Below, piece by piece: positions 15,069-44,133 of a stretch of DNA of 44,638 nt. Positions within the stretch are counted from its first letter, which is position 1, and each line of letters opens with the position of its first letter. The stretch is from an uncultured Clostridia bacterium (GTDB taxonomy: Bacteria > Acidobacteriota > Aminicenantia > UBA2199). The translations under genes were made by a program, and so were the position numbers. Location: assembly GCA_964614865.1 (NCBI GenBank), contig CAZTNO010000001.1, positions 1 through 44,638 on the forward strand. Direction: 5' to 3'. The notes under the pieces were generated by a model that was given only the letters and a program-made list of their open reading frames with translations, ran no database searches and was not told the DNA's origin.

Positions 15069-15143
15069 GGGGAGCAACCGCTGGTCACCCCCGCTCCCGG
15101 CGGGTTTCCGGGGAATTTTTTTGAATTTTTTTTTACCGGACAA

Positions 15144-15171
15144 TTGACTTTTGCGTTGAATGCCTTAATAT
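15144..15171 (+). promoter_or_regulatory. Promoter candidate for the KamA/ATP-grasp operon, with upstream T-tracts
   Basis: TTGACT (15144-15149), 16 nt spacer, TAATAT (15166-15171). T7 (15116-15122) and T9 (15126-15134) tracts sit where an UP element would be. Confidence 0.4.
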
Positions 15172-15205
15172 ATGGGACGGCGGAACAAAACCGCGGAGGA
15201 ACCAA

Positions 15206-16510
15206 TTGAAAAAAGGCGCTCAGGTCGTGGTAGAGAAAGAAAACGAGATGACCAACAGCGAGGAGGCTGAGCCTCCAAGCACCCCGGCTCTCAAGAGCCC
15301 ACTCCCCGCCCCGCCCCCCCTCCTCTTTCCCGATCTGATCCCCTTTCCCCACTCCCGCGAAGGGCGTACTCCGTTCAAAAGCAGCACCCGCTCGCTGTTG
15401 TTCCTGAACCGCTTTTTTCCCGGGGTCACCCGGGCCGAGTGGAACCACTGGGAGTGGCAGTTGCGCCACAGCATCACCACCCGCCAGGAGCTGGCCCGCA
15501 TGCTGACCCTGTCGGAAGACGAATGCCAGCCCATGATCGGCGGCAACGAGTGTTTGCCGCTACGTATCACCCCCTACTACGCCAGTTTGCTGGATGCCGG
15601 CGACGCAAGCCAACCGCTGCGGCGATCGGTGGTGCCGGTCACCGCCGAGCACCTGATCTCGGCTGGCGAGGCTGCCGACCCGCTGGGTGAGGATGGCCAC
15701 AGTTGCGTGCCCGGCCTGGTTCACCGCTATCCCGACCGGGTCCTGTTCATGGTCACCGGCTTTTGCTCTACCTACTGCCGCTACTGTACCCGCTCGCGGC
15801 TGGTCGGCGACGTCAACAAGCGCCAACTCAGCCGCGACCAGTGGGACCAGGCCCTGGCCTACATCGAGAGCCATTCGCAGATCCGCGACGTGCTGCTGTC
15901 GGGAGGCGACCCGCTGACCTTGTCCGAGGAGAACCTGGAGTACCTGCTGACCCGCCTCAGCCGGATCCCCCACGTCGAGTTCCTGCGCATCGGGACCAAG
16001 GTGCCGGTGGTGCTGCCCCAGCGCATCACCTCTTCGTTGCTCTCGCTGCTCAAGCGATTCCGCCCCCTCTGGCTGAGCATCCACTTCACCCATCCCGACG
16101 AGATCACCCCCGAAACCGCCCAGGCTGGCGAGCGGCTGGCCGATGCCGGGTTGCCGCGCGGCTCCCAGCCCGTCCTGCTCAAGGGGATCAACGACGACGT
16201 GACGGTGATGCGGCGCCTGGTGCATGAACTGCTGAAGATCCGGGTCCGTCCCTATTACCTCTATCAGTGCGATCCGATCCTGGGCTCGTCCCACTTTCGC
16301 ACCCCGGTGGAGACAGGGCTGGAGATCATCCGCGGATTGCGGGGCCATACCACCGGGTATGCCGTGCCCCACTACGTGATCGACGCTCCCGGCGGGGGAG
16401 GCAAGGTGCCGCTGCTGCCCGACTACTACGCCGGTCGCGAAGGTAACGACGTCCTGCTGCGCAACTACGAGGGGCACCTCTACCGGTATCCCGATCCCTG
16501 CGGCAACTAA
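15206..16510 (+). CDS. KamA-family radical SAM aminomutase (lysine 2,3-aminomutase-like)
   Basis: CSTYCRYCTRS (CxxxCxxC), GGDPL, and HYVIDAPGGGGKVP (PLP-lysine motif). TTG 15206 has GGAGGA 6 nt upstream. ATG 15248 is an alternative start. Confidence 0.85.
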   Translation: MKKGAQVVVEKENEMTNSEEAEPPSTPALKSPLPAPPPLLFPDLIPFPHSREGRTPFKSSTRSLLFLNRFFPGVTRAEWNHWEWQLRHSITTRQELARMLTLSEDECQPMIGGNECLPLRITPYYASLLDAGDASQPLRRSVVPVTAEHLISAGEAADPLGEDGHSCVPGLVHRYPDRVLFMVTGFCSTYCRYCTRSRLVGDVNKRQLSRDQWDQALAYIESHSQIRDVLLSGGDPLTLSEENLEYLLTRLSRIPHVEFLRIGTKVPVVLPQRITSSLLSLLKRFRPLWLSIHFTHPDEITPETAQAGERLADAGLPRGSQPVLLKGINDDVTVMRRLVHELLKIRVRPYYLYQCDPILGSSHFRTPVETGLEIIRGLRGHTTGYAVPHYVIDAPGGGGKVPLLPDYYAGREGNDVLLRNYEGHLYRYPDPCGN

Positions 16511-16561
16511 ACAGCCCGACACCATGGACGGCGCCAGGCCTCCTGCGGGCAGGGGGAACCC

Positions 16562-17536
16562 ATGATCATCGGTTTGACCTACGATCTGAAAGACGATTAC
16601 CGTGAACTCGGCTTTTCGGCCGAAGCGGTGGCCGAACTGGACAGCGAGGAGACCGTCTCCGGGATCGAGACAGCCCTGGCCCAGCTCGGCTACGACCCGG
16701 TGCGCATCGGCAACCTGCGCCACCTGATGGGGCGATTGCTTTCGGGGGAGCGCTGGGAGCTCGTCTTCAACATCTGCGAGGGGATGTTCGGTATCGGCAG
16801 GGAAGCCCAGGTGCCGGCCCTGCTCGACGCCTTCCAGGTGAACTACACCTTTTCCGATCCGATGGTGCTGGCCCTGACCCTGCACAAAGGGATGGCAAAG
16901 AGGGTGGTGCGCGATGCCGGGGTGCCCACCGCCCCCTTCGCCCTGGTGGAACGGATCGAGGATCTGCCCTCGGTCGATTTGCCCTTCCCGCTGTTCGTCA
17001 AGCCGGTGGGCGAGGGGACCGGCAAGGGGATCACCGAACGCTCCCGTGCGGCCGATGCCGCCGGGCTGGAGCGCTCCTGCCGCGAATTGCTGGACACCTT
17101 CCACCAGCCCGTGCTGGTCGAAACCTACCTGCCGGGCCGGGAGTTCACCGTGGGGGTCATCGGCACCGGGCCCGAGGCCGAGGCCATCGGCGGCATGGAG
17201 GTTCTGTTCGCCCAAGGTGGGGGGGACATCTACTCGTACCAGACCAAACGCGACTACGAGGACCTGGTGGAGTACCGCCGTATCCCCGACGAGCTGGTCG
17301 CCTCGTGTCACCGGGTGGCCCTGGCGGCCTGGCGGGCCCTGGGCTGCCGCGACGGGGGGCGGGTTGACCTGCGGCTCGACGACCGGAACGTGCCGAACTT
17401 TCTCGAAGTCAACCCGCTTGCCGGGCTCAATCCCAAGGATTCGGATTTGCCCATCCTGTCCCGGTTGCACGGCATCTCCTACGGCGAACTGATCGGCCGC
17501 ATCGTCGATTCTTCCCGGCGGCGGATCGGGCTGTGA
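16562..17536 (+). CDS. D-alanine--D-alanine ligase-like ATP-grasp protein (paralog 1)
   Basis: IGLTYDLKDDY N-terminus, ATP-grasp core (PLFVKPVGEGTGKGI) and the E-x-N metal motif FLEVNPLAGL. Confidence 0.8.
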   Translation: MIIGLTYDLKDDYRELGFSAEAVAELDSEETVSGIETALAQLGYDPVRIGNLRHLMGRLLSGERWELVFNICEGMFGIGREAQVPALLDAFQVNYTFSDPMVLALTLHKGMAKRVVRDAGVPTAPFALVERIEDLPSVDLPFPLFVKPVGEGTGKGITERSRAADAAGLERSCRELLDTFHQPVLVETYLPGREFTVGVIGTGPEAEAIGGMEVLFAQGGGDIYSYQTKRDYEDLVEYRRIPDELVASCHRVALAAWRALGCRDGGRVDLRLDDRNVPNFLEVNPLAGLNPKDSDLPILSRLHGISYGELIGRIVDSSRRRIGL

Positions 17537-18507
17537 AGGGGACGGTCGTTATCCTGCACCAGCAGGTGCCGCCGGGCGCCCCCCCCGACGAGACCGACGT
17601 GCTGGTGGAAGCGGCGGCGGTCCGTTCCGCGCTCGAGACCCTGGGCTGGCGAGTGGTGGTGGTGCCCCTGGGCCTCGACCTGTCCCAGGCTGCTGAAGAA
17701 CTGCGCCAGGAAAAGCCTGCGGTCGTCTTCAACCTGGTCGAAACAATCGGCGGTGACGGCCGGCTGATCCATCTCGGCACCTCCCTGCTCGACCACCTCC
17801 GGATCCCCTATACCGGCTGTCCGACCCCGGCCATGTTCCTCACCTCGGGCAAGGTGTGGGGCAAGCGGGTGCTGCGGGCCGAGGGGATCCCCACGCCGCC
17901 GTGGGCGATACCCGGGGATGATGCCGCCCTGGAAGCCCTGACCGGCCACCCATGCATCATCAAGGCCGAGTGGGAGCACGCTTCGATCGGCCTCGACGCG
18001 GGGGCGGTGCTGACCCCGCAAACCCCCGGGGAGCTCGCCCGGCGGCTCGGCGAGCGGCAATCGAGGCAGGGCATCCCGCTGTTTGCCGAGGCATTCGTGG
18101 CCGGGCGGGAGTTCAACCTGTCGTTGCTGGCAGGGGAGGTGTTGCCCCCCGCCGAGATCCGCTTTCTCGATTTCCCGGCCGGAGCGCCGCAAATGGTCGA
18201 TTACCGGGCCAAGTGGGACGAACAGTCACCCGAGTACCACCAGACGGTGCGTTCGTTCGATTTCTCGACGTCCGACTCGGCGCTGCTCGCCGAATTGGCC
18301 GGGGTGGCCCGCCGCTGCTGGCAGGCGTTCGGTTTGCGCGGCTACGGGCGAGTCGACTTCCGCGTCGACGAACGGGGGCGACCGTGGGTGCTCGAAGTCA
18401 ACACCAATCCCTGCATCTCGCCCGATGGCGGATTCGTAGCGGCTGCGCAGCGTGCGGGGCTGGATTTGCCCGAAGTGGTAGCCCGCATCCTGGCCGACGC
18501 GAACTGA
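17533..18507 (+). CDS. D-alanine--D-alanine ligase-like ATP-grasp protein (paralog 2)
   Basis: GTG 17533 overlaps the upstream stop (GTGA). ATP-grasp core and the E-x-N motif VLEVNTNPCISP. Same length (324 aa) as paralog 1. Confidence 0.75.
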   Translation: MKGTVVILHQQVPPGAPPDETDVLVEAAAVRSALETLGWRVVVVPLGLDLSQAAEELRQEKPAVVFNLVETIGGDGRLIHLGTSLLDHLRIPYTGCPTPAMFLTSGKVWGKRVLRAEGIPTPPWAIPGDDAALEALTGHPCIIKAEWEHASIGLDAGAVLTPQTPGELARRLGERQSRQGIPLFAEAFVAGREFNLSLLAGEVLPPAEIRFLDFPAGAPQMVDYRAKWDEQSPEYHQTVRSFDFSTSDSALLAELAGVARRCWQAFGLRGYGRVDFRVDERGRPWVLEVNTNPCISPDGGFVAAAQRAGLDLPEVVARILADAN

Positions 18508-28295: not shown

Positions 28296-31200
28296 TCAGG
28301 GGTGGGTCTCCTTTTCGGGTTCGGGAAAGGTGATCTCCAGCCCGGGCGGCGGCAAGGTTCCCTTTTCCACCACCTTGTCACGCTGGAAAATGGCCCAGGT
28401 GGGCAGGGGCTGGTGGCGCTGGGTCATGAAGTGGAGTTGCAGGGCGCTGTTGGCCAGCAGTAGGTAGACCACCCGCTGCGGATGGTAGGGGCTTGGCAGG
28501 GCGAGTGCCAGGCCGTCCTGGTCGCCGGCGTAGGTTTTGCCCTGCCAGCGGAAAACGTTGCGCTGCCAGGAAATGCCCAGCCGGTCGAGGGTGGCGGCGG
28601 TGAGCTGGTTGTCGGCGGGGCCGCCGAGCAGGATCAGGTCGTGTTGTTCCAGCTCCGGCAGGGTCATCTCACTGTCCTTGGCGATCGGCACCAGGGTCTC
28701 GGTGAAGGTGTCGGCGAGCACGGTGCGGTAGTTCAGGGCCAGGGTGTGGTTGGCCTCGATCTGGCGGCTCGTGCCGTAGACGATCCGCAGCTTTTTGAAA
28801 TCGTCGAACAGGTTGTTCCACTGGAAGTGCTCACGCCGGGCCAGGGGGAAATCCATGCCGTGGTTGAGGGTGATGGCCTGCGGCCGGCGGTCGAATACCA
28901 ACTGCTGGCGGTTTTCGCCCGGACCGAGGGTCAGCGGGGAGAGGGTGGTCCCCTTCTCGTCCAGCACCGCCACGGTGGTGGTGAGCAGGTAGGGGGTCTG
29001 CTGCTCGACGACCAAGTCGATCACCCAGCGATTGTCCCGGGGCAGGCAGTGGGCGGAGAACTTAAGGTCGGGCAGGTCGTCGCGTTCCAGCCAGGGGATG
29101 ATCCGCGGCCGGAGCGATTGGCCCGAAGTCCGCTCGAAAGAGGCGATCAACTGGTCGTTGGTCACCGGTTTGCCGGCAAAGCTCCGGTGCGCTTCGGCCA
29201 TAACCTTGGCAAAGAGGGAATTGCCCAGAAAGAGTCGCAACTGGTGGAGCAGGAAGGTGCCGCGGATGCGCGGAAGCTGGTAAGAGCCGTAGCGGTCGTA
29301 GCGACGGCTGGCCTCGATCGGCTTCACCGGGCCTTCGCGGCTCGCCAGGTAGAGCATGCGGTTGGTCTGTTCGTTCCAGGTTTCGGTCAGCGAGGGGAGG
29401 GCCGCCGTTCCCGCGGGCAGGTTGTTCAATATGTTCCAGTAGGCGGCGGTGGCCGAGACAAACCAGTTTTCCCGGTCGGAGGCGGGATAGACCGTGTTTT
29501 GCCAGAGGGCTCGCCGGTCGAAGCGGAAGAAATCGGCGCAGGTCGAGGTGTCGGGGGGTGGGGCCGGCTTGCGGGTTTCCTCGGTGGCTGCTTTGAGCGC
29601 CTTGAGCTTGGCGGTGATGAACTGCGGGCTGAAAACGGTGTAGCCCAGGGTCAGGTGGGGGGTGGCGTCGGGGTGATCGGGTATCAGGCGGCCGCTCCGG
29701 CCGGGAAATTTCTCGCGCAGGGTCACCTTGCCGAAGTGGGCCATGAACACCATCTTCCGTGCCATCTCCGAGGTGGTGATCTTGCCGTCGCAGGCGTGCG
29801 GCCGGTTGATCGGCGAGGAGGCCCAGAGCTCGGCGGCGTTGTCGGTGTCGATGCGGCCGCGAAACTGGCGGTAGTACTCGAAGAAAGCCAGGTCGCGGTT
29901 GGACGGGCTGAAGGTCAGATCGAAGGGGGCGTTGAGCGGGCTGGTGGCGTACTCTTTGCGCACTTCGGCGTCCTTGGCATTGTTGACGCTCCACAGGAAC
30001 CCGTCGGTGCCGCCGGGGAAATCGTTGTTTTTGCTGCGCCACAGCTTGTGTTTTTTCGTGCCCAGCAGCAGGATGGCGATCTCGTCGGTCTTGGCATCGC
30101 CGATCAGCCAGTCGTTGGTGTAGAGGCCGTTGTTCTGTTCGGTGAGGATGCGGGTGACCTCGTCGATCGAGGATGCGTACTGAGCTGCCCGGCGGATTCG
30201 GTTGGCCTGGGGGGTGCCGCTGGAATCGAAGCCGGTCTGCATTACCGTGGTTTCGCCGATCATGATGCCTGCGTCGTTCTGGTAGAAATCCGAACCCGAG
30301 TGGATGCCGCCCGGGAAGGTCTGGTAGACCAGCCGGTGGCCCCGGTCGGGCTCGACATCGCAGATCACTTTCCAATCCACCCCGGTATAGCCGCCCCACA
30401 TGAAGATCTGGCCCATGACGATCTCTCCCGAGCGGGTGGCCTTGCCGGTGGCCAAAAAACCGGAGCACTTGTGCAGACGGTCGGGCACCTTCAGGTCGTC
30501 TTCGGCTTTGAAGAAGTTCTGTCCGCTCAGGGCATGGGGGGTGCGGGGCAGGGCCGAGGCCACGTAGTCCACGTCGATGCCGGCGTTCAGGGTGACGATG
30601 TCGAGCAGGTCGACCGGGCCGCTCTTGCAGCGGGGAGCCTGGTTGCGGCGGGTCACCCCGTCGGCGATGCCGCGCATCTCTTCCAGGTACTCGGGGTCGA
30701 ACAGCCGCAGCATCAGGGCGTCGGCCAGGACGCGGCGGTTCTGCCAGCCATCGCCAGGCTTGTCTCCGTTGTGCTGGAAGGCGATCTTGTCGATGAAGGC
30801 GACGATCTCCTCGGCCATCAGAGACCCGTACTGGACTCCCCGGTCATAGGGTTTGCCCTCGATGTGGACGAAGGTCCAGCCCTGATCGGCGAAGCGAAAG
30901 GCGGGGCCGTGCCAGCGGACCGTTTCTGCCGGAATGAGGGCGGTGATGTCCTCGACCTCCTCCAGGGCGATGTCGTCGAACCAGACGGAGCCCCGGGCGG
31001 GGCCGTTCAGCCCCAGGTGGAGCTGCACCCGGTCCCGGGCGGTGGTGGCGATGAACAGGGTTTCGACCCGTTTCCAGTCGGTGTCGGCTCCGCATGACGG
31101 GGCGTGGTTGGTGAAGGGGAAGGACTGCATGGTCAGGGTGGCGGAAACCGGCGTCGGATAGCGGTCGATCTCGCGGGTTTCGGCGCCCGCGGTGCGGACC

Positions 31201-31493
31201 CAGCCGCTCAGGCGGTAGAGCCGCCCCACCTCCAGCGAGACCTCGGCAGAAGCCACCGTCGAACTCGTCCATTCGCGGTGCTCGATGGCCAGGCTGGCCT
31301 GGCCGCTGTGGGCCCGGGGGGCGAGCCCCACCTGGCCGGAGCGGTCGCCGGCGACCTGCCATGCCGCGGGCAGGGGGCCACTCCCGGGCGTTTCGAACCC
31401 GGCGTTGGCCAGGGGGAGAATACGATCCGCAGCGGGGGCGAGCGAGAAAAACACGAAGCCGGACAGGCCAAGCAGCAGGAGGATTTGCTTCAT
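28296..31493 (-). CDS. Large secreted multidomain protein: N-terminal CBM4/9-like module, central Ntn-hydrolase (phospholipase-B-like / peptidase C45-like) domain, C-terminal M1-peptidase-like region without HEXXH
   Basis: Start MKQILLLLGLSGFVFFSLAPA (signal peptide) at 31493. LANAGFE...VWFDDIALEEV resembles a CBM. LHKCSGFLATG...GQIFMW and NGLYTNDWLIGD resemble PLB-like Ntn hydrolases. GTFLLHQLRLFLGNSLFAKVMAEAHRSFAGKPVTNDQLIASFERTSG resembles the post-catalytic part of M1 peptidases. Upstream of 31493 the 1555-aa ORF is antisense to the CDF gene. Confidence 0.6.
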   Translation of the reverse strand: MKQILLLLGLSGFVFFSLAPAADRILPLANAGFETPGSGPLPAAWQVAGDRSGQVGLAPRAHSGQASLAIEHREWTSSTVASAEVSLEVGRLYRLSGWVRTAGAETREIDRYPTPVSATLTMQSFPFTNHAPSCGADTDWKRVETLFIATTARDRVQLHLGLNGPARGSVWFDDIALEEVEDITALIPAETVRWHGPAFRFADQGWTFVHIEGKPYDRGVQYGSLMAEEIVAFIDKIAFQHNGDKPGDGWQNRRVLADALMLRLFDPEYLEEMRGIADGVTRRNQAPRCKSGPVDLLDIVTLNAGIDVDYVASALPRTPHALSGQNFFKAEDDLKVPDRLHKCSGFLATGKATRSGEIVMGQIFMWGGYTGVDWKVICDVEPDRGHRLVYQTFPGGIHSGSDFYQNDAGIMIGETTVMQTGFDSSGTPQANRIRRAAQYASSIDEVTRILTEQNNGLYTNDWLIGDAKTDEIAILLLGTKKHKLWRSKNNDFPGGTDGFLWSVNNAKDAEVRKEYATSPLNAPFDLTFSPSNRDLAFFEYYRQFRGRIDTDNAAELWASSPINRPHACDGKITTSEMARKMVFMAHFGKVTLREKFPGRSGRLIPDHPDATPHLTLGYTVFSPQFITAKLKALKAATEETRKPAPPPDTSTCADFFRFDRRALWQNTVYPASDRENWFVSATAAYWNILNNLPAGTAALPSLTETWNEQTNRMLYLASREGPVKPIEASRRYDRYGSYQLPRIRGTFLLHQLRLFLGNSLFAKVMAEAHRSFAGKPVTNDQLIASFERTSGQSLRPRIIPWLERDDLPDLKFSAHCLPRDNRWVIDLVVEQQTPYLLTTTVAVLDEKGTTLSPLTLGPGENRQQLVFDRRPQAITLNHGMDFPLARREHFQWNNLFDDFKKLRIVYGTSRQIEANHTLALNYRTVLADTFTETLVPIAKDSEMTLPELEQHDLILLGGPADNQLTAATLDRLGISWQRNVFRWQGKTYAGDQDGLALALPSPYHPQRVVYLLLANSALQLHFMTQRHQPLPTWAIFQRDKVVEKGTLPPPGLEITFPEPEKETHP

Positions 31494-34464: not shown

Positions 34465-35826
34465 TCAGGGAAACAATTCCCGGTGCAAAGCGGCAAGCGC
34501 CCGGTTCGCATCGCCATCTGCCACCAGAAAGTAAGTGGCGACGTTCGAAGCGCCCGAGACGATCATCTCGACGTTCACCCCGGCCTGCGACACGGCCGAA
34601 AAGATCCGTCCCGCCGCTCCCCGCAGCGAGGGCATCCCCTCGCCGACCACTGCCAGCAGGCTCAGGTCTCTCCGGGCCGAGATCCGCTCGAGGCGTTGCT
34701 CCACGATTTTTTCCAGGGCGGCGAGGCCTTTTTTTGTGTCGTCCCGGGCCACCAGCAAGTTGATACTGGTCTGCGACGTCAGCACCGAGTGGATGTTGAC
34801 CCCGGCGGCGGCCAAAGCATCGCCGATGCGGCCGATCACCCCGGGGCGGATGCCGACCGCCGGCCCTTCGACCCGCAGCACGGCGATCTCCGCGTCGATG
34901 GTGACCCCCTTGATGCCGGGTTCCCCGGAACTCTTTCCCGGTTCGACCCGGGTGCCGGCGTGGTCGGGATCGTCGATGGGACGCAGCCGCACCCGGACCC
35001 CCAGGCCGGCCAGGGGCTCCAGGGTACGCGGGTGCAGGATGGCGGCCCCGAAGTAGGCGAGCTCGGCCGCCTCGGCAAACGAGAGGCGGGGCAGGGGGCG
35101 GGCGCCGGCGATTCTTTTCGGATCGGCGGAGGCGAACCCGGCCACGTCCTTCCAGATCTCCAGTTCACTGGCCCCGAGCAGCACGGCCAGTACCGCCGCG
35201 CTGTAGTCCGAGCCGTTGCGGCCGAAGGTGGCCACCCGCCCTTCGGGAGTGGCCCCGAAGAAACCGGTGAACACCGGGATCTTCCCTTGCCGCCGGCACG
35301 ACTGCCAGGCCGCTCGAGCCCGGCGCCGGCTGGCCGGCAGGTCGACTCCGGCATCCTCCCGGGTATCGTCCCGGGTCACCAGCACGCGGTCGGTGTCCAC
35401 CGCGAGGGCGGCGAGCCCCCCCTCCTCCAGGGCGGCCGCCATCAGCCTTGCTGACCAGCGTTCGCCGATGCTGACGACCATCGCCCGCAACCCGGAGGTG
35501 ATCTCTTCGCCCAAAGTGACCGCCAGCAGCGCCCGTTCCAGCCTTTGTCCCAGCGCCCGGATCGACCGTTCGAGCCGGGCCAGTAACCCGGGCTGGCCGG
35601 TGATTTGCCTGGCCAATTCCAGGTGTTTTGCGGTCAAATCGGCTGCCCGGTCGGCTGTCACCTGCGGTTTCTGGTGGGCAGCTTCTTTTGCCGCTTCGAG
35701 CAGCTGATCGGTGACCCCGGGCAAAGCCGACACCACCAGCGCCGGGGAAAGGGGTTCCTTGCCGACGATGGTGGCGATGCGTCGCATCGCGGGGCCGCCT
35801 GCCAGGCAACTGCCGCCGAATTTCAT
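34465..35826 (-). CDS. Aspartate kinase (monofunctional, C-terminal ACT domains)
   Basis: Start MKFGGSCLAG (KFGG motif) at 35826. SALPGVTDQLL is present, and the C-terminal ACT-like region includes LLAVVGEGM. The listed ORF start at 36198 lies inside asd. Confidence 0.85.
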   Translation of the reverse strand: MKFGGSCLAGGPAMRRIATIVGKEPLSPALVVSALPGVTDQLLEAAKEAAHQKPQVTADRAADLTAKHLELARQITGQPGLLARLERSIRALGQRLERALLAVTLGEEITSGLRAMVVSIGERWSARLMAAALEEGGLAALAVDTDRVLVTRDDTREDAGVDLPASRRRARAAWQSCRRQGKIPVFTGFFGATPEGRVATFGRNGSDYSAAVLAVLLGASELEIWKDVAGFASADPKRIAGARPLPRLSFAEAAELAYFGAAILHPRTLEPLAGLGVRVRLRPIDDPDHAGTRVEPGKSSGEPGIKGVTIDAEIAVLRVEGPAVGIRPGVIGRIGDALAAAGVNIHSVLTSQTSINLLVARDDTKKGLAALEKIVEQRLERISARRDLSLLAVVGEGMPSLRGAAGRIFSAVSQAGVNVEMIVSGASNVATYFLVADGDANRALAALHRELFP

Positions 35827-35846
35827 GACCTTGCCGGCGGGGGCGT

Positions 35847-36932
35847 TCACGGGGTGTCCCCTTTGAGCAGCCCCAGGGCGAAGGCCAGTTCGGCGTTGAG
35901 CAGGCAGCCGCCGGCGGCGCCGCGCACGGTGTTGTGCACCAGCAGCACCAGTTGGACGCGGCGTGGTCCAGCTCCCTGGCGTAGCCGGCCGATGGTCACC
36001 GCCATGCCGGCCCCCCGTCCCGGACCACCGGCCTGGGCATCGCGCCCCGGCTGGGGCCGGTCGGTTTCGTTTCGGACGATCAGGGGGCAGGGCGGCGCCG
36101 AGGGCAACCCCAGTTTCTGGGGCAGGCCGCAAAAATCCTCCAGCTCCTGGCGGAGCGAGTCGATCTCCACCTCTTCGGCGAATTCGAGATCGACACACTC
36201 CAGATGCCCCTCCCGTACCGCCACCCGGGTGCAGGTGGCCTGGATCTCGAGCGGGCGGGGGGCGATGCCCGCCTCGGTGACGGTGCCGAGGATCTTTTTG
36301 GTTTCCCGCCCGATCTTCTCTTCCTCACCGGCAATCCAGGGGATCACCGTGCCCAGGATATCGAGGGCGGGAAGCCCCCGCCTCCCCGCCCCCGAGACGG
36401 CCTGCTGGGTGGTCACCGATACTCCGCAAAGCCCCCCGCGGGCGGCCAGCGGCCGCAGGGCCAGCACCAGCCCCGAGGTCGAGCAGTTGGGGCCGGCGAC
36501 GATAAAGCCGCCGTGCCGCTCCTGCTGCCTTTGGGCCAGCTCCAGGTGGTCAGGATTCACCTCGGCGACCACGATCGGGATGTCCTCCTCCATGCGCAGC
36601 GGGCCGGCGTTGGTGAAGACGGCCATGCCAAGCGCCCGGCACTCCCGTTCCAGCGGGGCAGCCAGCGGCCCGGGCAGGGCCGAGAAAACCCCCCGCACCC
36701 CCCGTTTGATTAATTCCCGGGGGTCTGCGGCAAGCAGTGGCAGGTCGGATACTGGCGGCGGGATTTCGCCATCGAGTGACCAGATCACCCTCTGGCGGTA
36801 GGGGAGGCCCCGCGAGCGTTCCGAGGCGACGAGGGCTACCGGTTCGAAATAGGGATGGTCTGCGAGCCGCTCGACGAATCGTTGGCCGACCAGCCCGGTG
36901 GCTCCCAAAACGGCGACGGGTAGGCGGTTCAT
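35847..36932 (-). CDS. asd: Aspartate-semialdehyde dehydrogenase
   Basis: VAVLGATGLVGQRF (NADP-binding site), active-site GPNCSTSG. ATGA overlap with the upstream UPF0280 gene. Confidence 0.9.
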   Translation of the reverse strand: MNRLPVAVLGATGLVGQRFVERLADHPYFEPVALVASERSRGLPYRQRVIWSLDGEIPPPVSDLPLLAADPRELIKRGVRGVFSALPGPLAAPLERECRALGMAVFTNAGPLRMEEDIPIVVAEVNPDHLELAQRQQERHGGFIVAGPNCSTSGLVLALRPLAARGGLCGVSVTTQQAVSGAGRRGLPALDILGTVIPWIAGEEEKIGRETKKILGTVTEAGIAPRPLEIQATCTRVAVREGHLECVDLEFAEEVEIDSLRQELEDFCGLPQKLGLPSAPPCPLIVRNETDRPQPGRDAQAGGPGRGAGMAVTIGRLRQGAGPRRVQLVLLVHNTVRGAAGGCLLNAELAFALGLLKGDTP

Positions 36933-37660
36933 GAGGCGACTCCCTGGATTTTACGGGCGATCCGCCGGGGGTCTACCGGGACGCGGATCAGTTCGGGCAG
37001 GGCGCCCAGGGTGAGCAGGTGACCTCCGGCGATCACCAGCAACCCCTCGATGCCCGCCAGCAACAGCGGGGGCATGGCCCGGGAGATCTCCGCTGGATCG
37101 TGGCTGCGAACCGCATTGCCCAGGGCGGTGGCCACCGCGTCGGCCAGGGCGGCGTCGCCCGCCACCACCGTGGCAGCGTCGGCGCAACCGAAGCTCAGCG
37201 AGTGGCCGACCGTCCCCGACGAGGTGCAGACCGAGCGGATGCGAGGGGCGGGGGGGAAGAGCAAGGCCAGGTCGCGCACCGGCGAATCGCCGGCGAAGAG
37301 GCCGACCGGTACGGGGCGACTGAGCCACAAGGCGATATCGCCCCCGTTGTCGACGATGGCGTGGTCTGCCCCGGCGGCGATCATCGCTCGCAGGGCCGAT
37401 TCGGCGATCGCTCCAGCAACCGCTGCCATCGGGCCGACGCCGGCCCGGCGGGCGGCACGGGCCATTAGGCAAACGATCGGCGGGGCGCCCTTTGCGACCG
37501 GGATGGGGACCAGCGCGTCGAGGAACTCGGGCCGGGAGGAGATGTACTCCCGTAGCAGGCGGTCCTGATCGGTGATGGCGGCGATCGCCGCCGGCACGAA
37601 GCGGTCGCCGGCGATCACCGTGGCGAATGTCGATCCGATTTCCAGGTGGTGGCGTTTCAT
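36929..37660 (-). CDS. UPF0280 (COG2122, ApbE-superfamily) protein
   Basis: Starts MKRHHLEIGS at 37660. GPMAAVAGAIAESAL...IVDNGGDIAL is the family pattern. It overlaps both neighbours by 4 nt. The remainder of the listed 569-aa ORF is an out-of-context extension over the DUF39 gene. Confidence 0.65.
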   Translation of the reverse strand: MKRHHLEIGSTFATVIAGDRFVPAAIAAITDQDRLLREYISSRPEFLDALVPIPVAKGAPPIVCLMARAARRAGVGPMAAVAGAIAESALRAMIAAGADHAIVDNGGDIALWLSRPVPVGLFAGDSPVRDLALLFPPAPRIRSVCTSSGTVGHSLSFGCADAATVVAGDAALADAVATALGNAVRSHDPAEISRAMPPLLLAGIEGLLVIAGGHLLTLGALPELIRVPVDPRRIARKIQGVAS

Positions 37661-38793
37661 TTTTCCCTCCGCGGCGGGCGCACCGTCAGGGGACGTACCT
37701 GGGCCTGGGTGGGCAGGGGGGCCACCGCTTGGGTGAGCAGGAATCCGCCCTGCTCGATTTGCCGGCGCAACTCGTCTGCCACCCTGCGGGCGCCCCGCTG
37801 GCTGGACAGCGAGGAGGTTTTGGCCAGGCGGCCATTCACCTCGATCTCGCCGCTGCGCAGTTCCTGGTAGGTCACGGTGCGCAGCAGCGGGCGCTCGCGC
37901 GACGGCACGCCGTAGTCCAGCAGCCCGGTGACGATATCGCCATCGGCGATGCCGGTGCTGGCGGCCATCTGCTCGTCCAGGATGGGGATGGGGATGCCCA
38001 GGCCCACGTAGAGGGTGACCCCGTAGCCCTGGAAGCAGGCCGCCCGCAGGAAATCGGTCGACATGCCGCGCAGGTCCCCCTGCACCATCAGGGTGCCGAA
38101 GCCTGCCGCCGGGTTGTGCTGCGAGCCGGGGCCGGTGACGTAGCCTTCGCCTCCGCCGAGCAGGATGCGGGTGCCGATGCCGATGGTGCGGTACGACGGG
38201 TCGTTTTGCAGCGGCGAGAGCTCTCCCGCCCCCGAGTAGGTGACGCCAGCCAGGTTCGGCAGCAGCCGTCCCATGTAGGTGCGCAGGGTGCGCGGTCCCG
38301 AGTTGGTGGCGGCGTTGTAGCGCTGGTAGCCGTTGCGCGGGTTGCACAGCACGGCGAAGTTGAGGTCTTCCAGGGCGATGCGGGTGAAAAGCCGCTTGCG
38401 GGGGTAGCAGTCGGTGCCGCGGGAGACCGCCCGTAGCACCACCTCCCGGCCGGCCAGCAGGTCCTCGATCACGTGGGCGCCGCCGTAGCCGGGGTTGCCC
38501 CGGGCCTCCTGGGTGGCCCCCAGGTAGGCGTCGACCGCGGCCACCCCGCCGTGGGCCTCGACCCCGTTGAACACCATGCGGGACATCTTCTGCGGCGGCT
38601 CGCTGTGGCCCACGTTGAGGAAGACGCCCGACGAGCACATGGCGCCGAAGGTCCCGGTGGTGACTACGTCGACCTGCCGGTAGGCCTCCGCGGGGCCCGC
38701 CTCGCGCACCAGTTTCGTCATCTCGTCGGCGCGCAGCACGCGCACCGTTTTTTGAATGATCCGTTCGTTGATTTCGGATACCGTTCTGGACAT
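37657..38793 (-). CDS. DUF39 / COG1900 homocysteine biosynthesis protein
   Basis: VDVVTTGTFGAMCSSGVFLNVGH near the N-terminus is the hallmark of the COG1900 family. About 380 aa with no CBS domains. AAGGAG Shine-Dalgarno. Confidence 0.75.
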   Translation of the reverse strand: MSRTVSEINERIIQKTVRVLRADEMTKLVREAGPAEAYRQVDVVTTGTFGAMCSSGVFLNVGHSEPPQKMSRMVFNGVEAHGGVAAVDAYLGATQEARGNPGYGGAHVIEDLLAGREVVLRAVSRGTDCYPRKRLFTRIALEDLNFAVLCNPRNGYQRYNAATNSGPRTLRTYMGRLLPNLAGVTYSGAGELSPLQNDPSYRTIGIGTRILLGGGEGYVTGPGSQHNPAAGFGTLMVQGDLRGMSTDFLRAACFQGYGVTLYVGLGIPIPILDEQMAASTGIADGDIVTGLLDYGVPSRERPLLRTVTYQELRSGEIEVNGRLAKTSSLSSQRGARRVADELRRQIEQGGFLLTQAVAPLPTQAQVRPLTVRPPRREK

Positions 38794-38926
38794 GGGTATG
38801 CTCCTTTTCCTGGATTCTCGAAAAAAGGGGGTGGCGCGCCCGAATATCCGTTCGCCCGGTCAGGGGCTGGCGGCTATCCGGGCCTCACATACACATCCAG
38901 AACGATGCGGTGGGGCGGATATTCAC
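38794..38926 (-). promoter_or_regulatory. Structured ~130-nt 5' leader of the homocysteine operon (candidate unclassified riboswitch or attenuator)
   Basis: A perfect 9-bp inverted repeat (38916-38924 / 38842-38850) encloses 65 nt. Inside it is a nested 6-bp hairpin (38878-38883 / 38854-38859). CUGGAU (38900-38895) is complementary to AUCCAG (38815-38810) next to the Shine-Dalgarno sequence. A U6 run sits at 38826-38821. Confidence 0.4.
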
Positions 38927-38933
38927 GGCAACG

Positions 38934-38942
38934 ATTCTAGCA
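38934..38942 (-). promoter_or_regulatory. Extended -10 promoter element for the homocysteine operon
   Basis: Minus strand reads TGCTAGAAT (TGn + TAGAAT). The -35 region (TTCCCT) is weak. The predicted TSS falls 1-2 nt before the 5' arm of the leader stem. Confidence 0.35.
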
Positions 38943-39019
38943 CAGTCGCTGCCAGGAGGGAAGGGGGCGCTTGCCCTGGCTCCTCCAGCGTGATACAAAT
39001 CCTTTTCCGGAGGCCCAGA

Positions 39020-39817
39020 ATGACCGTACCGCTGTGGATCGTCGACGCCTTCACCGGGGAACCGTTTGCCGGCAACCCCGCCGCCGTCTGCCTGCCGGGG
39101 AAGCCACTTTCCGAGGCGCGGATGCGGCAGGTCGCCGCCGAGATGAACCTGTCGGAGACCGCCTTCCTGGTCGCGGAAGGCTCGGGGTACCGGCTGCGCT
39201 GGTTCACTCCGCGGGTGGAGGTCGACCTGTGCGGCCACGCCACCCTGGCCTCCTGCCACGTGCTGTGGAGCGAGGGGTTCCTGCCGCCGGAACAACCCGC
39301 AATCTTCGAGACCCGCTCCGGAAGGCTCTCGGCCCGGCGCGACGGCGACTGGATCGAGCTCGACTTCCCGGCCCGCAAGTCCACCCTGGCCTCTCCCGAT
39401 GGTGCGGTCCTGCGGGCGCTGGGCTGCGAGGCCGTCTCCACCTGGAAGACGGCGGACAACTTGCTGGTGGAGGTGGAAGACCCAGAGACGGTGCGGCGCC
39501 TGGCCCCCGACTTGCCCGCCCTGGGGCGGCTCACCGAACACGGGGTGATCGTCACCGCACGCGGCGCGGAGCGGGGGATCGACTTCGTCTCGCGCTTCTT
39601 CGCCCCGGCCGTCGGCGTCGACGAGGATCCGGTGACCGGCTCTTCCCACTGCTCGCTGGTCCCCTTCTGGGCGGGGAAGCTTGGGAAAACCGAGTTTTTC
39701 GCCCGGCAACTCTCGGTTCGCGGCGGCCAGCTGCGCCTGAAACTTGCCGAAGAACGGGTGGTGATCGCCGGCCAGGCAATCACCGTGCTGCGGGGGAAGC
39801 TCGAACTGCCCGACTGA
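39020..39817 (+). CDS. PhzF-family phenazine-biosynthesis-like isomerase
   Basis: MTVPLWIVDAFTGEPFAGNPAAVCL...EMNLSETAFL...LRWFTPRVEVDLCGHATLAS matches PhzF/YddE family blocks. Confidence 0.85.
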   Translation: MTVPLWIVDAFTGEPFAGNPAAVCLPGKPLSEARMRQVAAEMNLSETAFLVAEGSGYRLRWFTPRVEVDLCGHATLASCHVLWSEGFLPPEQPAIFETRSGRLSARRDGDWIELDFPARKSTLASPDGAVLRALGCEAVSTWKTADNLLVEVEDPETVRRLAPDLPALGRLTEHGVIVTARGAERGIDFVSRFFAPAVGVDEDPVTGSSHCSLVPFWAGKLGKTEFFARQLSVRGGQLRLKLAEERVVIAGQAITVLRGKLELPD

Positions 39818-41242: not shown

Positions 41243-41351
41243 TTCCCTTCGGGCTGGCGCAGGGAGGGGTGACTGAGTCGCCGCTGGGCGGTTGCCGGTC
41301 CGTTCTGCGGCAAAAATGGGTCGCGGCCCAAAAAAAACCTTTCGGGTGCCA

Positions 41352-41380
41352 TTGACAAAGGCGAGCGGGGCCGTTACTAT
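41352..41380 (+). promoter_or_regulatory. Near-consensus sigma70 promoter of lexA
   Basis: TTGACA (41352-41357), 17 nt spacer, TACTAT (41375-41380). An A8 tract (41329-41336) sits at an UP-element-like position. Confidence 0.55.
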
Positions 41381-41386
41381 CTATGC

Positions 41387-41401
41387 GAACGATATGCGAA
41401 C
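41387..41401 (+). promoter_or_regulatory. Candidate LexA operator, direct repeat GAAC-N7-GAAC
   Basis: GAAC (41387-41390), gatatgc, GAAC (41398-41401). It is embedded in a 10-bp direct repeat TATGCGAACG (41382-41391 and 41393-41402), immediately downstream of the -10 box. Confidence 0.55.
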
Positions 41402-41414
41402 GGAGGCGGAAAGC

Positions 41415-42008
41415 ATGATCACGCCCAAGCAGAAACGGATTCTCGATGCCATCCGCGGGTTGTGGACCCGAGTTGGCGGCGCCCCCTCGCTGCGCGATGT
41501 GGCCCGCGAGGCGGGGCTGCGCTCGCCGGCGACGGTCCATCGCCACGTCGCCCACCTGATCGCCGAGGGGTTGCTGGTCAAGGAGGGGGGGCGGATCGCG
41601 CCTGCCCCGCCGCCCGTTTCCACCGGCACGATCTCGATCCCGCTGGTGGGGACGGTGCCCGCCGGCCACCCCCAGGAGGTGTTCGAGTACCTGGGGCCCG
41701 AGATCGACGTCCCCGACTGGCTGGTGCCCAGGCGCTCCGGCATGGCCGCCCTCAAGGTGCGCGGGGACAGCATGCGCGACGCCTACATCGGCGACGGCGA
41801 CATCGTGGTCATCGAGATGACCCCGCGAGCTGATTCGGGCGACATGGTGGTCGCCGCCCTCGACGACAACGAGATCACCCTGAAGCGCTTGAAGATCGAG
41901 GCGGGGGTGTACTGGCTGGTGCCGGAAAACCCCGAGTTCCAGCCGATGCGGCGCGACGAGTTGCGCATCATCGGTCGGGTCAAGGCAGTCTTGCGGCAGT
42001 ACGCCTGA
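41415..42008 (+). CDS. lexA: LexA repressor (S24 peptidase)
   Basis: N-terminal wHTH (LRDVAREAGLRSPATVHRHVAHL). Cleavage site VPAG. Catalytic Ser in VRGDSM and Lys in ITLKRLK. GGAGG Shine-Dalgarno before ATG 41415. Confidence 0.9.
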   Translation: MITPKQKRILDAIRGLWTRVGGAPSLRDVAREAGLRSPATVHRHVAHLIAEGLLVKEGGRIAPAPPPVSTGTISIPLVGTVPAGHPQEVFEYLGPEIDVPDWLVPRRSGMAALKVRGDSMRDAYIGDGDIVVIEMTPRADSGDMVVAALDDNEITLKRLKIEAGVYWLVPENPEFQPMRRDELRIIGRVKAVLRQYA

Positions 42009-42061
42009 TCCGCGGGGGGCTCCGTTTGCCAAGGCGCCGGGGTTTGTGGTACACCTAGCCC

Positions 42062-43453
42062 ATGCGCAAACTCAAGGACCGCCTGGCCGAGGCCATCCCC
42101 GTCCGCCCGCAGGCTCCCGCCAATGATCCCCCCCCCGCCGCTACTCCTCCCGAAAAGGAGGCCCCGGAGCCGGGCGCACGCCCCGGATCGACCCGCGAGC
42201 GGCTGCAAAAGTTGGTCGAAAGACAGCTGAAGAACCGCCCCCCGGTGGTGCCCACGGCTCCCGTTTCCGCCCCGGCGCCGCGGCCACCTTTTGCCCCCGA
42301 TTCCCCCAGTCTGCCGACAAAACGGGACCTCCCTCGTGGGCAGCGGAGCGGTGGCGAACCGTTCGTGGTCAGCGATTTCACCTACGACCTGTCCGCCCGC
42401 TATGGCGCCGTCTGCCTGCGCGAGTGGCAGCAGGTCAGCCCGCTGGGGCTGGCGAAAATCGCCGGCGATGACCGCTTCGCCCTGCCCGCGGAGCGCCTGG
42501 TCTTCTTCGACACCGAGACCACCGGCCTCTCCGGGGGCACCGGTACCATCCCGTTCATGCTCGGCTTCGGCTTTCTCGACGGCGCGGTGTTTTCGGCCAA
42601 GGTCTTCACCCTCAAGGAACTGGACCACGAGGAGGAGATGCTGGCCGCGGTAGGCGAATTCCTGGCCGCCCACGACTTCGCCGCCACCGTCACCTACAAC
42701 GGCCGCTCGTTCGATTTCCCGTTGATGGAGAGCCGCTCCATCCTGATGCGAAGGCCGTTTCCGTTGCTGTCGCGGCCGCATCTCGATTTTCTGTTTCCCG
42801 CCCGGTTGATCTGGCGCCACACCTACGAGTCGCGCAGCCTGGGCTACCTCGGCGAGCGATTGCTGGGGCTCTCCCGAAGCGAGGATATCGACGGCGCCGA
42901 GGTGCCGGTGCTGTTCAACAGCTTTTTGCGCAGCGGCCTCTTCTCGCTGATCGAGCCGGTGATCGAGCACAACGCGCTCGATTTGCTCGGGCTGGCGGCG
43001 CTGCTGCTGCTGGCCGTGCGCTACCTCGACGATTTCTCGCTGACCCGCGACGAGGGGGAAATCCTCGGCCTTGGCACTTTGCATGAGCGCAACGGCGCCG
43101 AAACCGAGGCCGAAGCGCTGTACCGCACGGTGCGCGAGAGCGGGGGGAGGAACGAGGTGGTGGCCCGGGCGGTGAAACGGCTGGCCCTGATGGCCAAGCG
43201 GCGCAAGCTGTTCGAGGATGCCCAGGAGCTGTGGCATGCCCTGGCGGCCTGCGGTGATCCCGGGGCCTGGCGCGAGCTCTCGATTCACCTGGAGCACCGC
43301 CAGGGGCGGGTGGGGGAGGCATTGGCGATGGTCGAGCAGGCTCTGGGGAAGAGCGACCTGCCAGGCCCCGTCCGCGCCGATCTGGAAAAGAGGCTGGTCC
43401 GCCTGCAGCGCAAGGCGGGCAAATTGGATTCCGGCGAGGGGAGCGATTCCTGA
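42062..43453 (+). CDS. RNase H-like (YprB/DEDDh-type) exonuclease domain protein with a Pro-rich N-terminus and a TPR-like C-terminus
   Basis: LVFFDTETTGL (Exo I), YNGRSFDFPLM (Exo II) and IEHNALDLLGL (H-x4-D, Exo III). The C-terminal helical repeats are Ala/Leu/Glu-rich. Confidence 0.65.
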   Translation: MRKLKDRLAEAIPVRPQAPANDPPPAATPPEKEAPEPGARPGSTRERLQKLVERQLKNRPPVVPTAPVSAPAPRPPFAPDSPSLPTKRDLPRGQRSGGEPFVVSDFTYDLSARYGAVCLREWQQVSPLGLAKIAGDDRFALPAERLVFFDTETTGLSGGTGTIPFMLGFGFLDGAVFSAKVFTLKELDHEEEMLAAVGEFLAAHDFAATVTYNGRSFDFPLMESRSILMRRPFPLLSRPHLDFLFPARLIWRHTYESRSLGYLGERLLGLSRSEDIDGAEVPVLFNSFLRSGLFSLIEPVIEHNALDLLGLAALLLLAVRYLDDFSLTRDEGEILGLGTLHERNGAETEAEALYRTVRESGGRNEVVARAVKRLALMAKRRKLFEDAQELWHALAACGDPGAWRELSIHLEHRQGRVGEALAMVEQALGKSDLPGPVRADLEKRLVRLQRKAGKLDSGEGSDS

Positions 43454-43487: not shown

Positions 43488-43497
43488 ATAGGCAACC

Positions 43498-44133
43498 ATG
43501 GCCAAAACCGATCGATCGCTCCTTTCACTTCTCGTTCAGCTGGTGCGCTGGTTTTTCCCTCCCCCGGCCTGGCGGCTACCGGTTGTATTGCTGATCGCGG
43601 TTTTTGCCGGTCTGGGCGCCGCGGTGGTGCACATGGCCCGGGCGCCATCCTATCTCTCCGATCGTCCCGAAACCTGTCTGAATTGCCACGTCATGCGTCC
43701 GGCCTACGCCACCTGGCGGGCCAGCGCCCACGGTCGCGACACCACCTGCAACGACTGCCACGTCCCCCACGATTCGGTGCTGCGCAAGTTCGCCTTCAAG
43801 GCCACCGACGGCCTCCGCCACTCCTGGGTGTTCACCTGGAGGCTGGAGCCGCAGACGCTGCAGATCCGCGCAGCGGGGCGTCAGGTGGTCCAGGAAAACT
43901 GCGTGCGCTGCCACCAGTCGCGGGTGACGCCGATCGCCGTGCGCGGCGGCCGCTCGATGAACTCGCTGACCACGGGGGGGCGCGTCTGCTGGGACTGCCA
44001 TCGCGAAACTCCCCACGGCCGGGCGGTGAGCCTGGCCATGACGCCGAACGCGCGGCTACCCGGTTTGCCGCCGTTGCTCCCCGTTTCCCGCGAGCCCGGG
44101 CCCGTCCGAAAACCGATGTCCACCAGGAGATAA
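43498..44133 (+). CDS. nrfH: Cytochrome c nitrite reductase small subunit NrfH (tetraheme NapC/NirT family)
   Basis: N-terminal TM helix plus four CxxCH motifs: CLNCH, CNDCH, CVRCH and CWDCH. Confidence 0.85.
   Translation: MAKTDRSLLSLLVQLVRWFFPPPAWRLPVVLLIAVFAGLGAAVVHMARAPSYLSDRPETCLNCHVMRPAYATWRASAHGRDTTCNDCHVPHDSVLRKFAFKATDGLRHSWVFTWRLEPQTLQIRAAGRQVVQENCVRCHQSRVTPIAVRGGRSMNSLTTGGRVCWDCHRETPHGRAVSLAMTPNARLPGLPPLLPVSREPGPVRKPMSTRR

Follow-up and report, generated by a model that had tools for sequence, protein, structure and literature searches.

A putative aspartate-to-homocysteine operon with a ferredoxin-less DUF39 protein and a candidate methionine-sensing leader in an uncultured Aminicenantia bacterium

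Introduction

[quoted passage not shown] The NIL domain binds methionine, the CBS domains bind S-adenosylmethionine (SAM), and the ferredoxin is regarded as the electron supply (2025 study, PMC12068725); in the same work, the homocysteine subfamily of DUF39 proteins, COG1900a, is defined by the conserved Cys54 (which is essential) and Cys131 of MA1821. The subject of the present work is a related operon on the minus strand of contig CAZTNO010000001.1 (assembly GCA_964614865.1; the whole stretch of 44,638 nucleotides that was analyzed, ∼44.6 kb, is referred to as the window), deposited as an uncultured Clostridia bacterium and placed by GTDB in the Aminicenantia (Acidobacteriota), in which genes for a DUF39 (COG1900) protein, a COG2122 (UPF0280) protein, an aspartate-semialdehyde dehydrogenase (asd), and an aspartate kinase follow one another behind a leader with a short candidate open reading frame (ORF).

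In bacteria, homocysteine synthesis requires a DUF39 protein that has no CBS domains, and bacterial DUF39 proteins commonly lack these domains; the orthologs often adjoin, or are fused to, a ferredoxin, and often adjoin COG2122 (Kuehl et al, 2014, PMC4045070). The pathway has been studied in Desulfovibrio vulgaris (DvMF_1464, DvMF_0262, and DvMF_0044, the last being the COG2122 protein) and D. alaskensis (Dde_3007). Methionine prototrophy of D. vulgaris needs each of DUF39, NIL/ferredoxin, and COG2122, the fitness profiles of COG2122 and DUF39 are nearly identical (r = 0.98), homoserine is not an intermediate, and homoserine dehydrogenase is dispensable for methionine (Price et al, 2018, PMC5764234).

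With the M. acetivorans system, the locus described here shares the COG1900a catalytic domain, both marker cysteines (PMC12068725), and the COG2122 partner; its DUF39 protein is ∼60% identical to archaeal orthologs (e.g., Methanocella P0093), and in some archaeal loci, too, the gene for Asd adjoins that for DUF39. It differs in lacking CBS domains and in having no NIL-ferredoxin in the operon or in the 44.6 kb, in that COG2122 is coupled directly to DUF39 instead of following a NIL-ferredoxin gene, and in that kinase and asd are on the same transcript. Common to the locus and Desulfovibrio are a bacterial, stand-alone DUF39 without CBS domains and a COG2122 partner, which is required in Desulfovibrio (PMC5764234; PMC4045070). 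There, however, the three genes lie apart from one another and a NIL-ferredoxin encoded separately is indispensable, whereas in the window DUF39 overlaps with COG2122 and both are linked to asd and kinase; furthermore, the leader motif described below was not found at any Desulfobacterota locus scanned. The same gene order and leader, at 60–67% identity, are shared with operons from Acidobacteriota, Aminicenantes, and Planctomycetota bins (P0004/L090, P0025/L173), from which the locus differs in that their DUF39 carries a C-terminal 2x[4Fe-4S] domain of ∼75 residues that the window protein lacks. The four genes probably form a translationally coupled operon that would lead from aspartate to homocysteine without homoserine, with the reductant supplied in trans and control exerted by the leader.

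Results

The operon and its proteins

The initial annotation, which was made from the DNA letters alone, had proposed four minus-strand genes in the order DUF39, UPF0280, asd, and aspartate kinase. ORFs and profile matches bore out both order and identities, and the assignments to DUF39/COG1900 and UPF0280/COG2122 held in profile searches (PF01837; NF003324 and PF27030). The DUF39 protein matched PF01837 with 434 bits (cut-off 26.2; E = 3.7e-130) over profile positions 2–349 of 349. The subfamily model for coenzyme M (CoM) synthase, TIGR03287 (MMP16/ComF, COG1900d, with an inserted ferredoxin), gave 132.7 bits, far under its cut-off of 363.95. The protein was 59–61% identical to archaeal, CBS-type “homocysteine biosynthesis protein” sequences of the L-ASST type, and its C53 and C129, invariant in an alignment that included an archaeal CBS-type protein, correspond to Cys54 and Cys131 of MA1821. 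Judged by these sequence characters, the window DUF39 is a member of the COG1900a homocysteine subfamily and not of the CoM-synthase subfamily; NCBI and JGI already name DUF39-type proteins “homocysteine biosynthesis protein” or “L-aspartate semialdehyde sulfurtransferase.”

The COG2122 protein matched NF003324 over its full length (E = 3e-73), at 246 bits under that equivalog's cut-off of 275, and PDB entry 2O34 with E = 3e-30; PF27030 is precomputed on P0121, which is identical to the window protein, and on all 120 listed homologs. Its Cys145, in the motif CTSSGTVGHSLSFG, was identical in 120 of 120 homologs and is the sole invariant cysteine, and the motifs VGPMAAVAG and DNGGD are retained. 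Asd matched TIGR00978 (390 bits; cut-off 301), its closest solved structure being 1YS4 (E = 4e-82), with the malonyl-CoA reductase paralog 4DPK scoring lower. The kinase matched TIGR00657 (318 bits; cut-off 209) as well as PF00696, ACT_9, ACT_7, and ACT, with 3C1M and 2HMF as the closest solved structures (E = 4e-67). 3C1M, 2HMF, and 1YS4 are proteins of Methanocaldococcus jannaschii, so that all four genes are archaeal in flavor.

The ATGA overlaps that had been read at the first two junctions are exact (37660–37657 and 36932–36929). The gap of 20 nucleotides that the initial annotation also placed before the kinase probably does not exist. At 35850, an in-frame GTG shares the sequence GTGA with the asd stop codon, the N-terminus read from this GTG (VNAPAGKVMKFGG) aligns with MNPPFFKVMKFGG of relatives with 85% identity, and in every relative the kinase starts 2–7 codons before VMKFGG in the alignment. 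As the kinase gene, judging from this alignment, most likely starts at GTG 35850, all three junctions of the operon are most likely four-nucleotide overlaps. Overlaps of this kind usually indicate translational coupling.

The order DUF39, COG2122, asd, and kinase, with overlapping or nearly touching genes, recurred in at least 11 lineages (window/L081-84, L085-87, L088-89, L090-91, L103, L104, L108, L119, L143, L173, and L174) whose flanking genes are unrelated. Judged by this recurrence of order and tight junctions amid unrelated flanks, the operon is real beyond chance. Two-gene versions consisting of DUF39 and COG2122 were found as well (L095, L175, and L172, a Pirellulaceae bin). On contigs of the Methanomassiliicoccales/Thermoplasmata type (L023, L026, L028, and L148), the order was asd, DUF39, NIL-ferredoxin, COG2122; the linkage of asd and DUF39 is thus found in both bacterial and archaeal loci and spans both domains of life. 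A scan of a genome collection with the DUF39 protein returned only relatives of at most 58% identity, from archaea and Desulfobacterota, and none from the window's own group.

In the proposed pathway, aspartate kinase and the archaeal-type Asd would produce aspartate semialdehyde, to which the COG1900a DUF39 enzyme, together with COG2122, would add sulfide reductively, yielding homocysteine without passing through homoserine; COG2122, with its one invariant cysteine, is the presumed persulfide or sulfur-delivery component. This homocysteine chemistry, carried over from the work on Methanosarcina and Desulfovibrio, is very likely by analogy, the roles of the individual proteins being inferred. 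The route had been put forward in the initial annotation, and its steps from aspartate via aspartate semialdehyde to homocysteine are supported by the protein families, the conserved linkage, and the leader, although its core is not new, having been published for bacteria. The joining of asd and kinase with DUF39 and COG2122 lends independent genomic support to aspartate semialdehyde as the substrate.

Alternatively, kinase and Asd might be general enzymes of the aspartate family (lysine, threonine, diaminopimelate, and methionine) that merely share the transcript, in which case the operon would not be a dedicated methionine route. The placement of the L090 operon among his, ilvC, and leuA genes is in keeping with this, as is the fact that the two-gene versions (L172, L175, and L095) carry the same leader, which for that reason goes with the sulfur genes and not with asd and kinase. 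However, a sole kinase/Asd pair under methionine-specific control would starve the other aspartate branches, and the four-gene order with overlapping junctions has been kept in at least 11 lineages. Nor does a conserved internal promoter exist from which asd and kinase could be driven separately: the only candidate (36975–36948, minus strand; TAGACC-16-TAAAAT), located within the 3′-terminal part of COG2122 and upstream of asd, has hexamers that the 85%-identical relatives do not share, and this sigma-70-like pair is probably there by chance. A mere sharing of the transcript by general enzymes is thus considered unlikely, if worth weighing.

The missing ferredoxin

Domain, motif, and tblastn searches confirmed the earlier observation that the DUF39 protein has no CBS domain and that a NIL/ferredoxin partner is absent from the window. 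No plausible gene of the 44.6 kb contained a CxxCxxCxxxC motif, and four NIL-ferredoxin protein queries gave no tblastn match in it. When the architectures of the 120 best DUF39 homologs (60–85% identical) were counted, a C-terminal 2x[4Fe-4S] ferredoxin domain was present in 92, whereas 15 were stand-alone, 10 were long forms (nine archaeal CBS-type proteins and P0109), and three were fragmentary. The window protein stops eight residues past a conserved VRPLxVR linker, the region in which the ferredoxin domain of its relatives begins. Stand-alone forms fell into three to five separate similarity clusters amid ferredoxin-fused relatives (by unweighted pair-group clustering, UPGMA, only, not a rigorous tree), which suggests that the ferredoxin domain was lost repeatedly. 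The window lineage would accordingly be one that lost a domain which most of its close relatives carry fused to DUF39.

The initial annotation had proposed UPF0280 as a stand-in for the NIL/ferredoxin partner, which was not borne out. Among the lineages with the four-gene operon, DUF39 is stand-alone in four and ferredoxin-fused in seven (L090, L103, L104, L108, L119, L143, and L173), and COG2122 occupies the same position in both kinds of operon. Moreover, COG2122 follows the NIL-ferredoxin gene in ∼40 of ∼90 archaeal and other loci in which NIL-ferredoxin comes right after DUF39. Being present both with and without ferredoxin, COG2122 is therefore a constant third component and not a replacement for ferredoxin. 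The alignment revealed no gain of a conserved cysteine in the DUF39 proteins of ferredoxin-less lineages. In the window COG2122, cysteines stand at positions 64 and 159, where 107 and 81, respectively, of the 120 homologs have arginine; C64 is shared with one other homolog of the 120, and the closest relatives keep the arginine. A substitute metal site made up of C64 and C159 was rejected, as both replace common arginines and neither tracks the loss of ferredoxin. P0109 (571 residues), which at first sight is a fusion of DUF39 and COG2122, has an 80-residue linker at the ferredoxin site that contains neither cysteine nor ferredoxin motif, and it is truncated; a frameshift artifact is more probable than a true fusion, and P0109 was not used as evidence.

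In Desulfobacterota, the genes for DUF39, NIL-ferredoxin, and COG2122 are dispersed, and their loci have no partner within 8 kb (see also PMC5764234). Because of this dispersal, absence of the ferredoxin from the operon does not imply its absence from the genome. The two electrons needed would come from a ferredoxin or another reductant encoded elsewhere, and an electron donor encoded elsewhere in the genome is the most likely solution.

A different solution would be that the ferredoxin-less DUF39/COG2122 pair works without a dedicated ferredoxin, either because a general cellular ferredoxin supplies the reducing equivalents or because thiol chemistry does; in the latter version, persulfide/disulfide exchange would proceed via C53 and C129 of DUF39 and C145 of COG2122, with recycling by thioredoxin or a similar protein, and the two-protein bacterial enzyme envisaged in the initial annotation would be essentially right. 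Stand-alone DUF39 followed directly by COG2122 in at least four operon lineages, the flanks of which, up to 10 kb, hold no ferredoxin gene, the apparently multiple losses of the ferredoxin, the invariant cysteine of COG2122, and a persulfide on MA1821 in vivo, as reported in work cited in PMC5764234, are all compatible with such an enzyme. Against these stand the retention of the fused ferredoxin in most close relatives, the fact that neither COG2122 nor DUF39 of ferredoxin-less lineages gained a compensating cysteine, and the dispersed ferredoxin genes that are the rule in Desulfobacterota, so that absence from the operon says little. Independence from a dedicated ferredoxin is therefore regarded as very unlikely, and an electron donor encoded in trans as the preferred explanation.

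The leader

One upstream promoter and leader had been noted before. Both exist, in the form of an extended −10 element and a leader of ∼130 nucleotides (Table 1), but as phrased the statement had no content. The elements lie in the intergenic region 38794–39019 (226 nucleotides), between DUF39 and a divergent PhzF gene that starts at 39020. A generic sigma-70 scan found no promoter in this region. At the same place, relatives have TGnTAtgAT or TGCTATAAA, and more distant operons a full TTGACA-17-TATAAA/TAGAAT promoter. From ∼38925 to the start codon, the leader is almost identical in 85%-identical relatives while the flanks diverge.

Comparison with more distant operons revealed a common plan: a strong promoter, a short upstream ORF (uORF), Met-x-Met near its end, a hairpin, a C-rich, G-poor spacer, and the ribosome-binding site. 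In 16 lineages (window, L081, L085, L088, L090, L092, L095, L103, L104, L108, L123, L128, and L172-L175), the Met-x-Met motif, followed by a stop or by Pro-Gly-Pro, lies ∼100–130 nucleotides upstream of DUF39, and the hairpin invariably starts five nucleotides after the second AUG. Outside the pair formed by the window and L081, an in-frame upstream ATG gives a peptide of 13–37 residues in 13 of 14 lineages; in L088, the in-frame start is found only at an internal ATG, 30 codons upstream of the motif. The codon between the two methionines varies (Ile, Cys, Lys, or Val, encoded by AUA, AUC, UGU, AAG, and GUG), whereas the flanking AUGs never do. In one of four loci fetched later, one extra whole codon stands between the AUGs (Met-Met-Ala-Met), and the frame is kept. 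Across 11 lineages, the hairpin has eight pairs according to RNAalifold, four of which are invariant (CCCG/CGGG) and four variable; three of the latter show compensatory double changes, and one cell only is broken. Every lineage has the C-rich, G-poor spacer after its hairpin. This variation is, as far as the alignment can tell, that of codons and not that of an aptamer.

A covariance model built from 11 lineages (R1), run on 1.9 Mb of loci that included ∼150 DUF39 loci of other types, had all its matches upstream of operons of this class, and it matched at the expected place in four of the four loci fetched afterwards (E = 5e-15 to 6e-7). By this measure, the leader is a genuine element, specific for operons of this class. 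No other copy of the motif was present in the window or in the 1.9 Mb; hence, no regulon can be defined. No Rfam 15 model reached its gathering score, whether in the window or in the regions upstream of DUF39 at 11 related loci, and the matches in 38600–39300 at E ≤ 10 were all at chance level. A known riboswitch in the leader was rejected on account of these missing matches.

In the window, the predicted minimum-free-energy fold of the leader is dominated by a long-range helix of ∼15 bp between the uORF and the start region of DUF39 (38907–38892 with 38796–38779). Its duplex energy is −25.7 kcal/mol, as compared with −13.5 ± 3.2 for shuffled sequences (z = −3.9). The duplex between uORF and start region beat the shuffles at ≤ 0.1 in 8 of 14 lineages, with ∼1.4 expected.

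Surroundings of the operon

The features of the operon and its leader are collected in Table 1. Downstream, a CorA gene converges on the operon, its end lying 16 nucleotides from that of the kinase gene. The local order PhzF, operon, CorA, and acetyltransferase is shared with contigs whose DUF39 is 85% identical; these originate from anaerobic-digester and similar metagenomes, and the COG2122 protein of these relatives has been deposited as Candidatus Aminicenantes bacterium, a group (Acidobacteriota in the wide sense) from which the window very likely derives too. The genes of the remaining window are those of an ordinary bacterial chromosome (queA, an ECF sigma factor gene, thiC, yebC, ruvC, ruvB, pfk, ispG, lexA, and others), and canonical methionine genes were found nowhere within its 44.6 kb.

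Table 1. Positions of the genes and leader elements in the window.
Feature	Position	Strand	Remarks
DUF39/HcyBio	38793..37657	minus	378 residues; stand-alone, without CBS or ferredoxin domain; PF01837
COG2122/UPF0280 (ApbE-like)	37660..36929	minus	243 residues; start overlaps DUF39 stop codon; NF003324, PDB 2O34
asd, archaeal/fungal-type aspartate-semialdehyde dehydrogenase	36932..35847	minus	361 residues; TIGR00978
Aspartate kinase, two ACT domains	35850..34465 (most likely)	minus	461 residues from GTG 35850; 453 residues if from ATG 35826
Extended −10 promoter element, TGTGCTAGAAT	38944-38934	minus	read from sequence; −35 weak or absent
Candidate leader ORF (uORF), (M)NIRPTASFWMCM*	38926-38885	minus	GTG AAT ATC CGC CCC ACC GCA TCG TTC TGG ATG TGT ATG TGA
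Two invariant Met codons of the uORF	38896-38894 and 38890-38888	minus	conserved across lineages
Long-range helix, 5′ arm, CAUCGUUCUGGAUGUG	38907-38892	minus	within uORF (codons 7–12), includes first Met codon; minimum-free-energy fold
Conserved hairpin, GCCCGGAUA...UAUUCGGGC	38883-38838	minus	begins exactly 5 nucleotides after second Met codon; RNAalifold
C-rich, G-poor run, CCACCCCCUUUUUU	38834-38821	minus	after hairpin; predicted pairing with AAAAGG of ribosome-binding site
Ribosome-binding site of DUF39, AAGGAG	38806-38801	minus	read from sequence
Long-range helix, 3′ arm, CCCAUGUCCAGAACGGUA	38796-38779	minus	DUF39 start codon (38793-38791) and codons 2–6; minimum-free-energy fold

Three further regions of the window deserve mention. 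At 15125–18507 (plus strand), two ATP-grasp genes (D-Ala-D-Ala ligase C-terminal domain) lie behind a lysine-2,3-aminomutase-like radical SAM gene, and together the three may constitute a beta-lysine or peptide-ligation cluster. At 41277–43453 (plus strand), a LexA-like repressor gene adjoins one for a 464-residue protein with an RNase H-like/PolB-exonuclease domain; this pair is kept in L081 (2634–4688), where a Macro-domain gene comes next, whereas in the window it is followed by a NapC/NirT-type multiheme cytochrome gene (43492–44133). A very large ORF of more than 1,000 codons occupies 28296–31400 (minus strand), its single domain match being a weak one to a phospholipase B-like domain. 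From stop to stop, its frame extends to 32978, overlapping a plus-strand cation-efflux-like ORF, and the candidate start is uncertain.

Discussion

End-product codons at a fixed distance from an RNA structure are a hallmark of ribosome-mediated attenuation. With the attenuators trpL, hisL, and thrL, the leader described here has in common its place upstream of a biosynthetic operon and its candidate short uORF, whose end-product codons keep a fixed distance from a conserved RNA structure; trpL of Escherichia coli has two regulatory codons, the same number as the window leader. With translational attenuation of the ermC type, it shares the predicted pairing, in the window, of a uORF segment with the start region of the downstream gene. 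In contrast to these attenuators, the regulatory codons are those for methionine, an intrinsic terminator is lacking in most lineages, and the start of the window uORF is uncertain. The working hypothesis is that the leader is a candidate leader-peptide attenuator that senses Met-tRNA. When Met-tRNA is scarce, the ribosome would pause on the Met codons of the uORF and thereby hold open the ∼15-bp helix that otherwise buries the start codon of DUF39, which would switch on DUF39 and, via the four-nucleotide overlaps, the three genes downstream. A ribosome that terminates and leaves would let the helix close, so that regulation would have the right sign. This helix may be only one of several solutions, and exposure of the C-rich spacer to Rho is a possible other output.

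Several observations weigh against a coupled, leader-controlled route from aspartate to homocysteine as proposed here. As no ferredoxin/NIL gene is present in the 44.6 kb, the pathway is incomplete within that stretch, and kinase and Asd could be the cell's sole copies, which would also serve lysine, threonine, and diaminopimelate. With regard to the leader, the uORF of the window lineage has no upstream AUG, leaving only a GTG seven nucleotides after the −10 element or a three-codon AUG-UGU-AUG. The long-range helix is weak or absent in about half of the lineages (absent in the AT-rich members), and, the sequences there being identical, a comparison of the window with its close relatives reveals no covariation. 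After the hairpin, most lineages have no U-tract and thus no intrinsic terminator. The idea that a ribosome frees the ribosome-binding site when it covers the 5′ arm of the hairpin was considered and rejected, constrained folding having given no consistent release.

Alternatively, the leader might act as a metabolite-binding riboswitch or a protein-binding operator (responding, for example, to SAM, methionine, or a sulfur metabolite), the AUGs then being conserved as nucleotides and not as codons. The poor uORF start of the window lineage and the failure of the peptide model to provide either a terminator or a consistent release of the ribosome-binding site fit such a role, and so do the base of the hairpin (CCCG/CGGG) and AUGAUAAUG, which are conserved at the nucleotide level, and the covariation of the stem. 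On the other hand, the leader belongs to no Rfam family, and the single simple hairpin that is conserved would be very small for an aptamer. The middle triplet is free to vary while the flanking AUGs are fixed, the three-nucleotide insertion in one locus keeps the frame, and, in the lineages outside the window/L081 pair, in-frame ATG starts and stop or Pro-Gly-Pro codons make up a coding pattern. A riboswitch or operator is thus held to be rather improbable, and translation of the Met-x-Met uORF is the preferred basis of control.

NIL and CBS sensor domains are missing from the operon class that bears the leader, whereas the classes that have these domains do not have the leader. Such mutual exclusion fits a change in the means of feedback: control would sit in the leader instead of in the NIL (methionine) or CBS (SAM) domains of the archaeal enzyme. 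Going further, it is proposed tentatively, and with somewhat more doubt than confidence, that the Met-x-Met uORF and the hairpin represent an undescribed methionine-sensing attenuator that replaces NIL/CBS allostery in Acidobacteriota/Aminicenantes-like and Planctomycetota bacteria, and that the ferredoxin-less DUF39-COG2122 pair is a minimal two-protein enzyme that uses a general reductant. A literature search for a methionine-sensing leader peptide found no report, which does not prove that none exists. Likewise, a conserved four-gene operon from aspartate to homocysteine, its ferredoxin-less variants, and the Met-x-Met leader appear to be undescribed in the literature examined.

Many strict anaerobes obtain their methionine by the DUF39 route, the enzymology of which has yet to be settled. 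Each apparent loss of the ferredoxin is a natural experiment on which parts are needed, and the ferredoxin-less forms are obvious choices for a reconstitution of the reaction from as few proteins as possible. A methionine-sensing leader, if true, would add one more amino acid to those known from classic attenuation and would carry this mode of control into phyla that have been little studied, and it would serve as an annotation marker for methionine-regulated genes in metagenomes.

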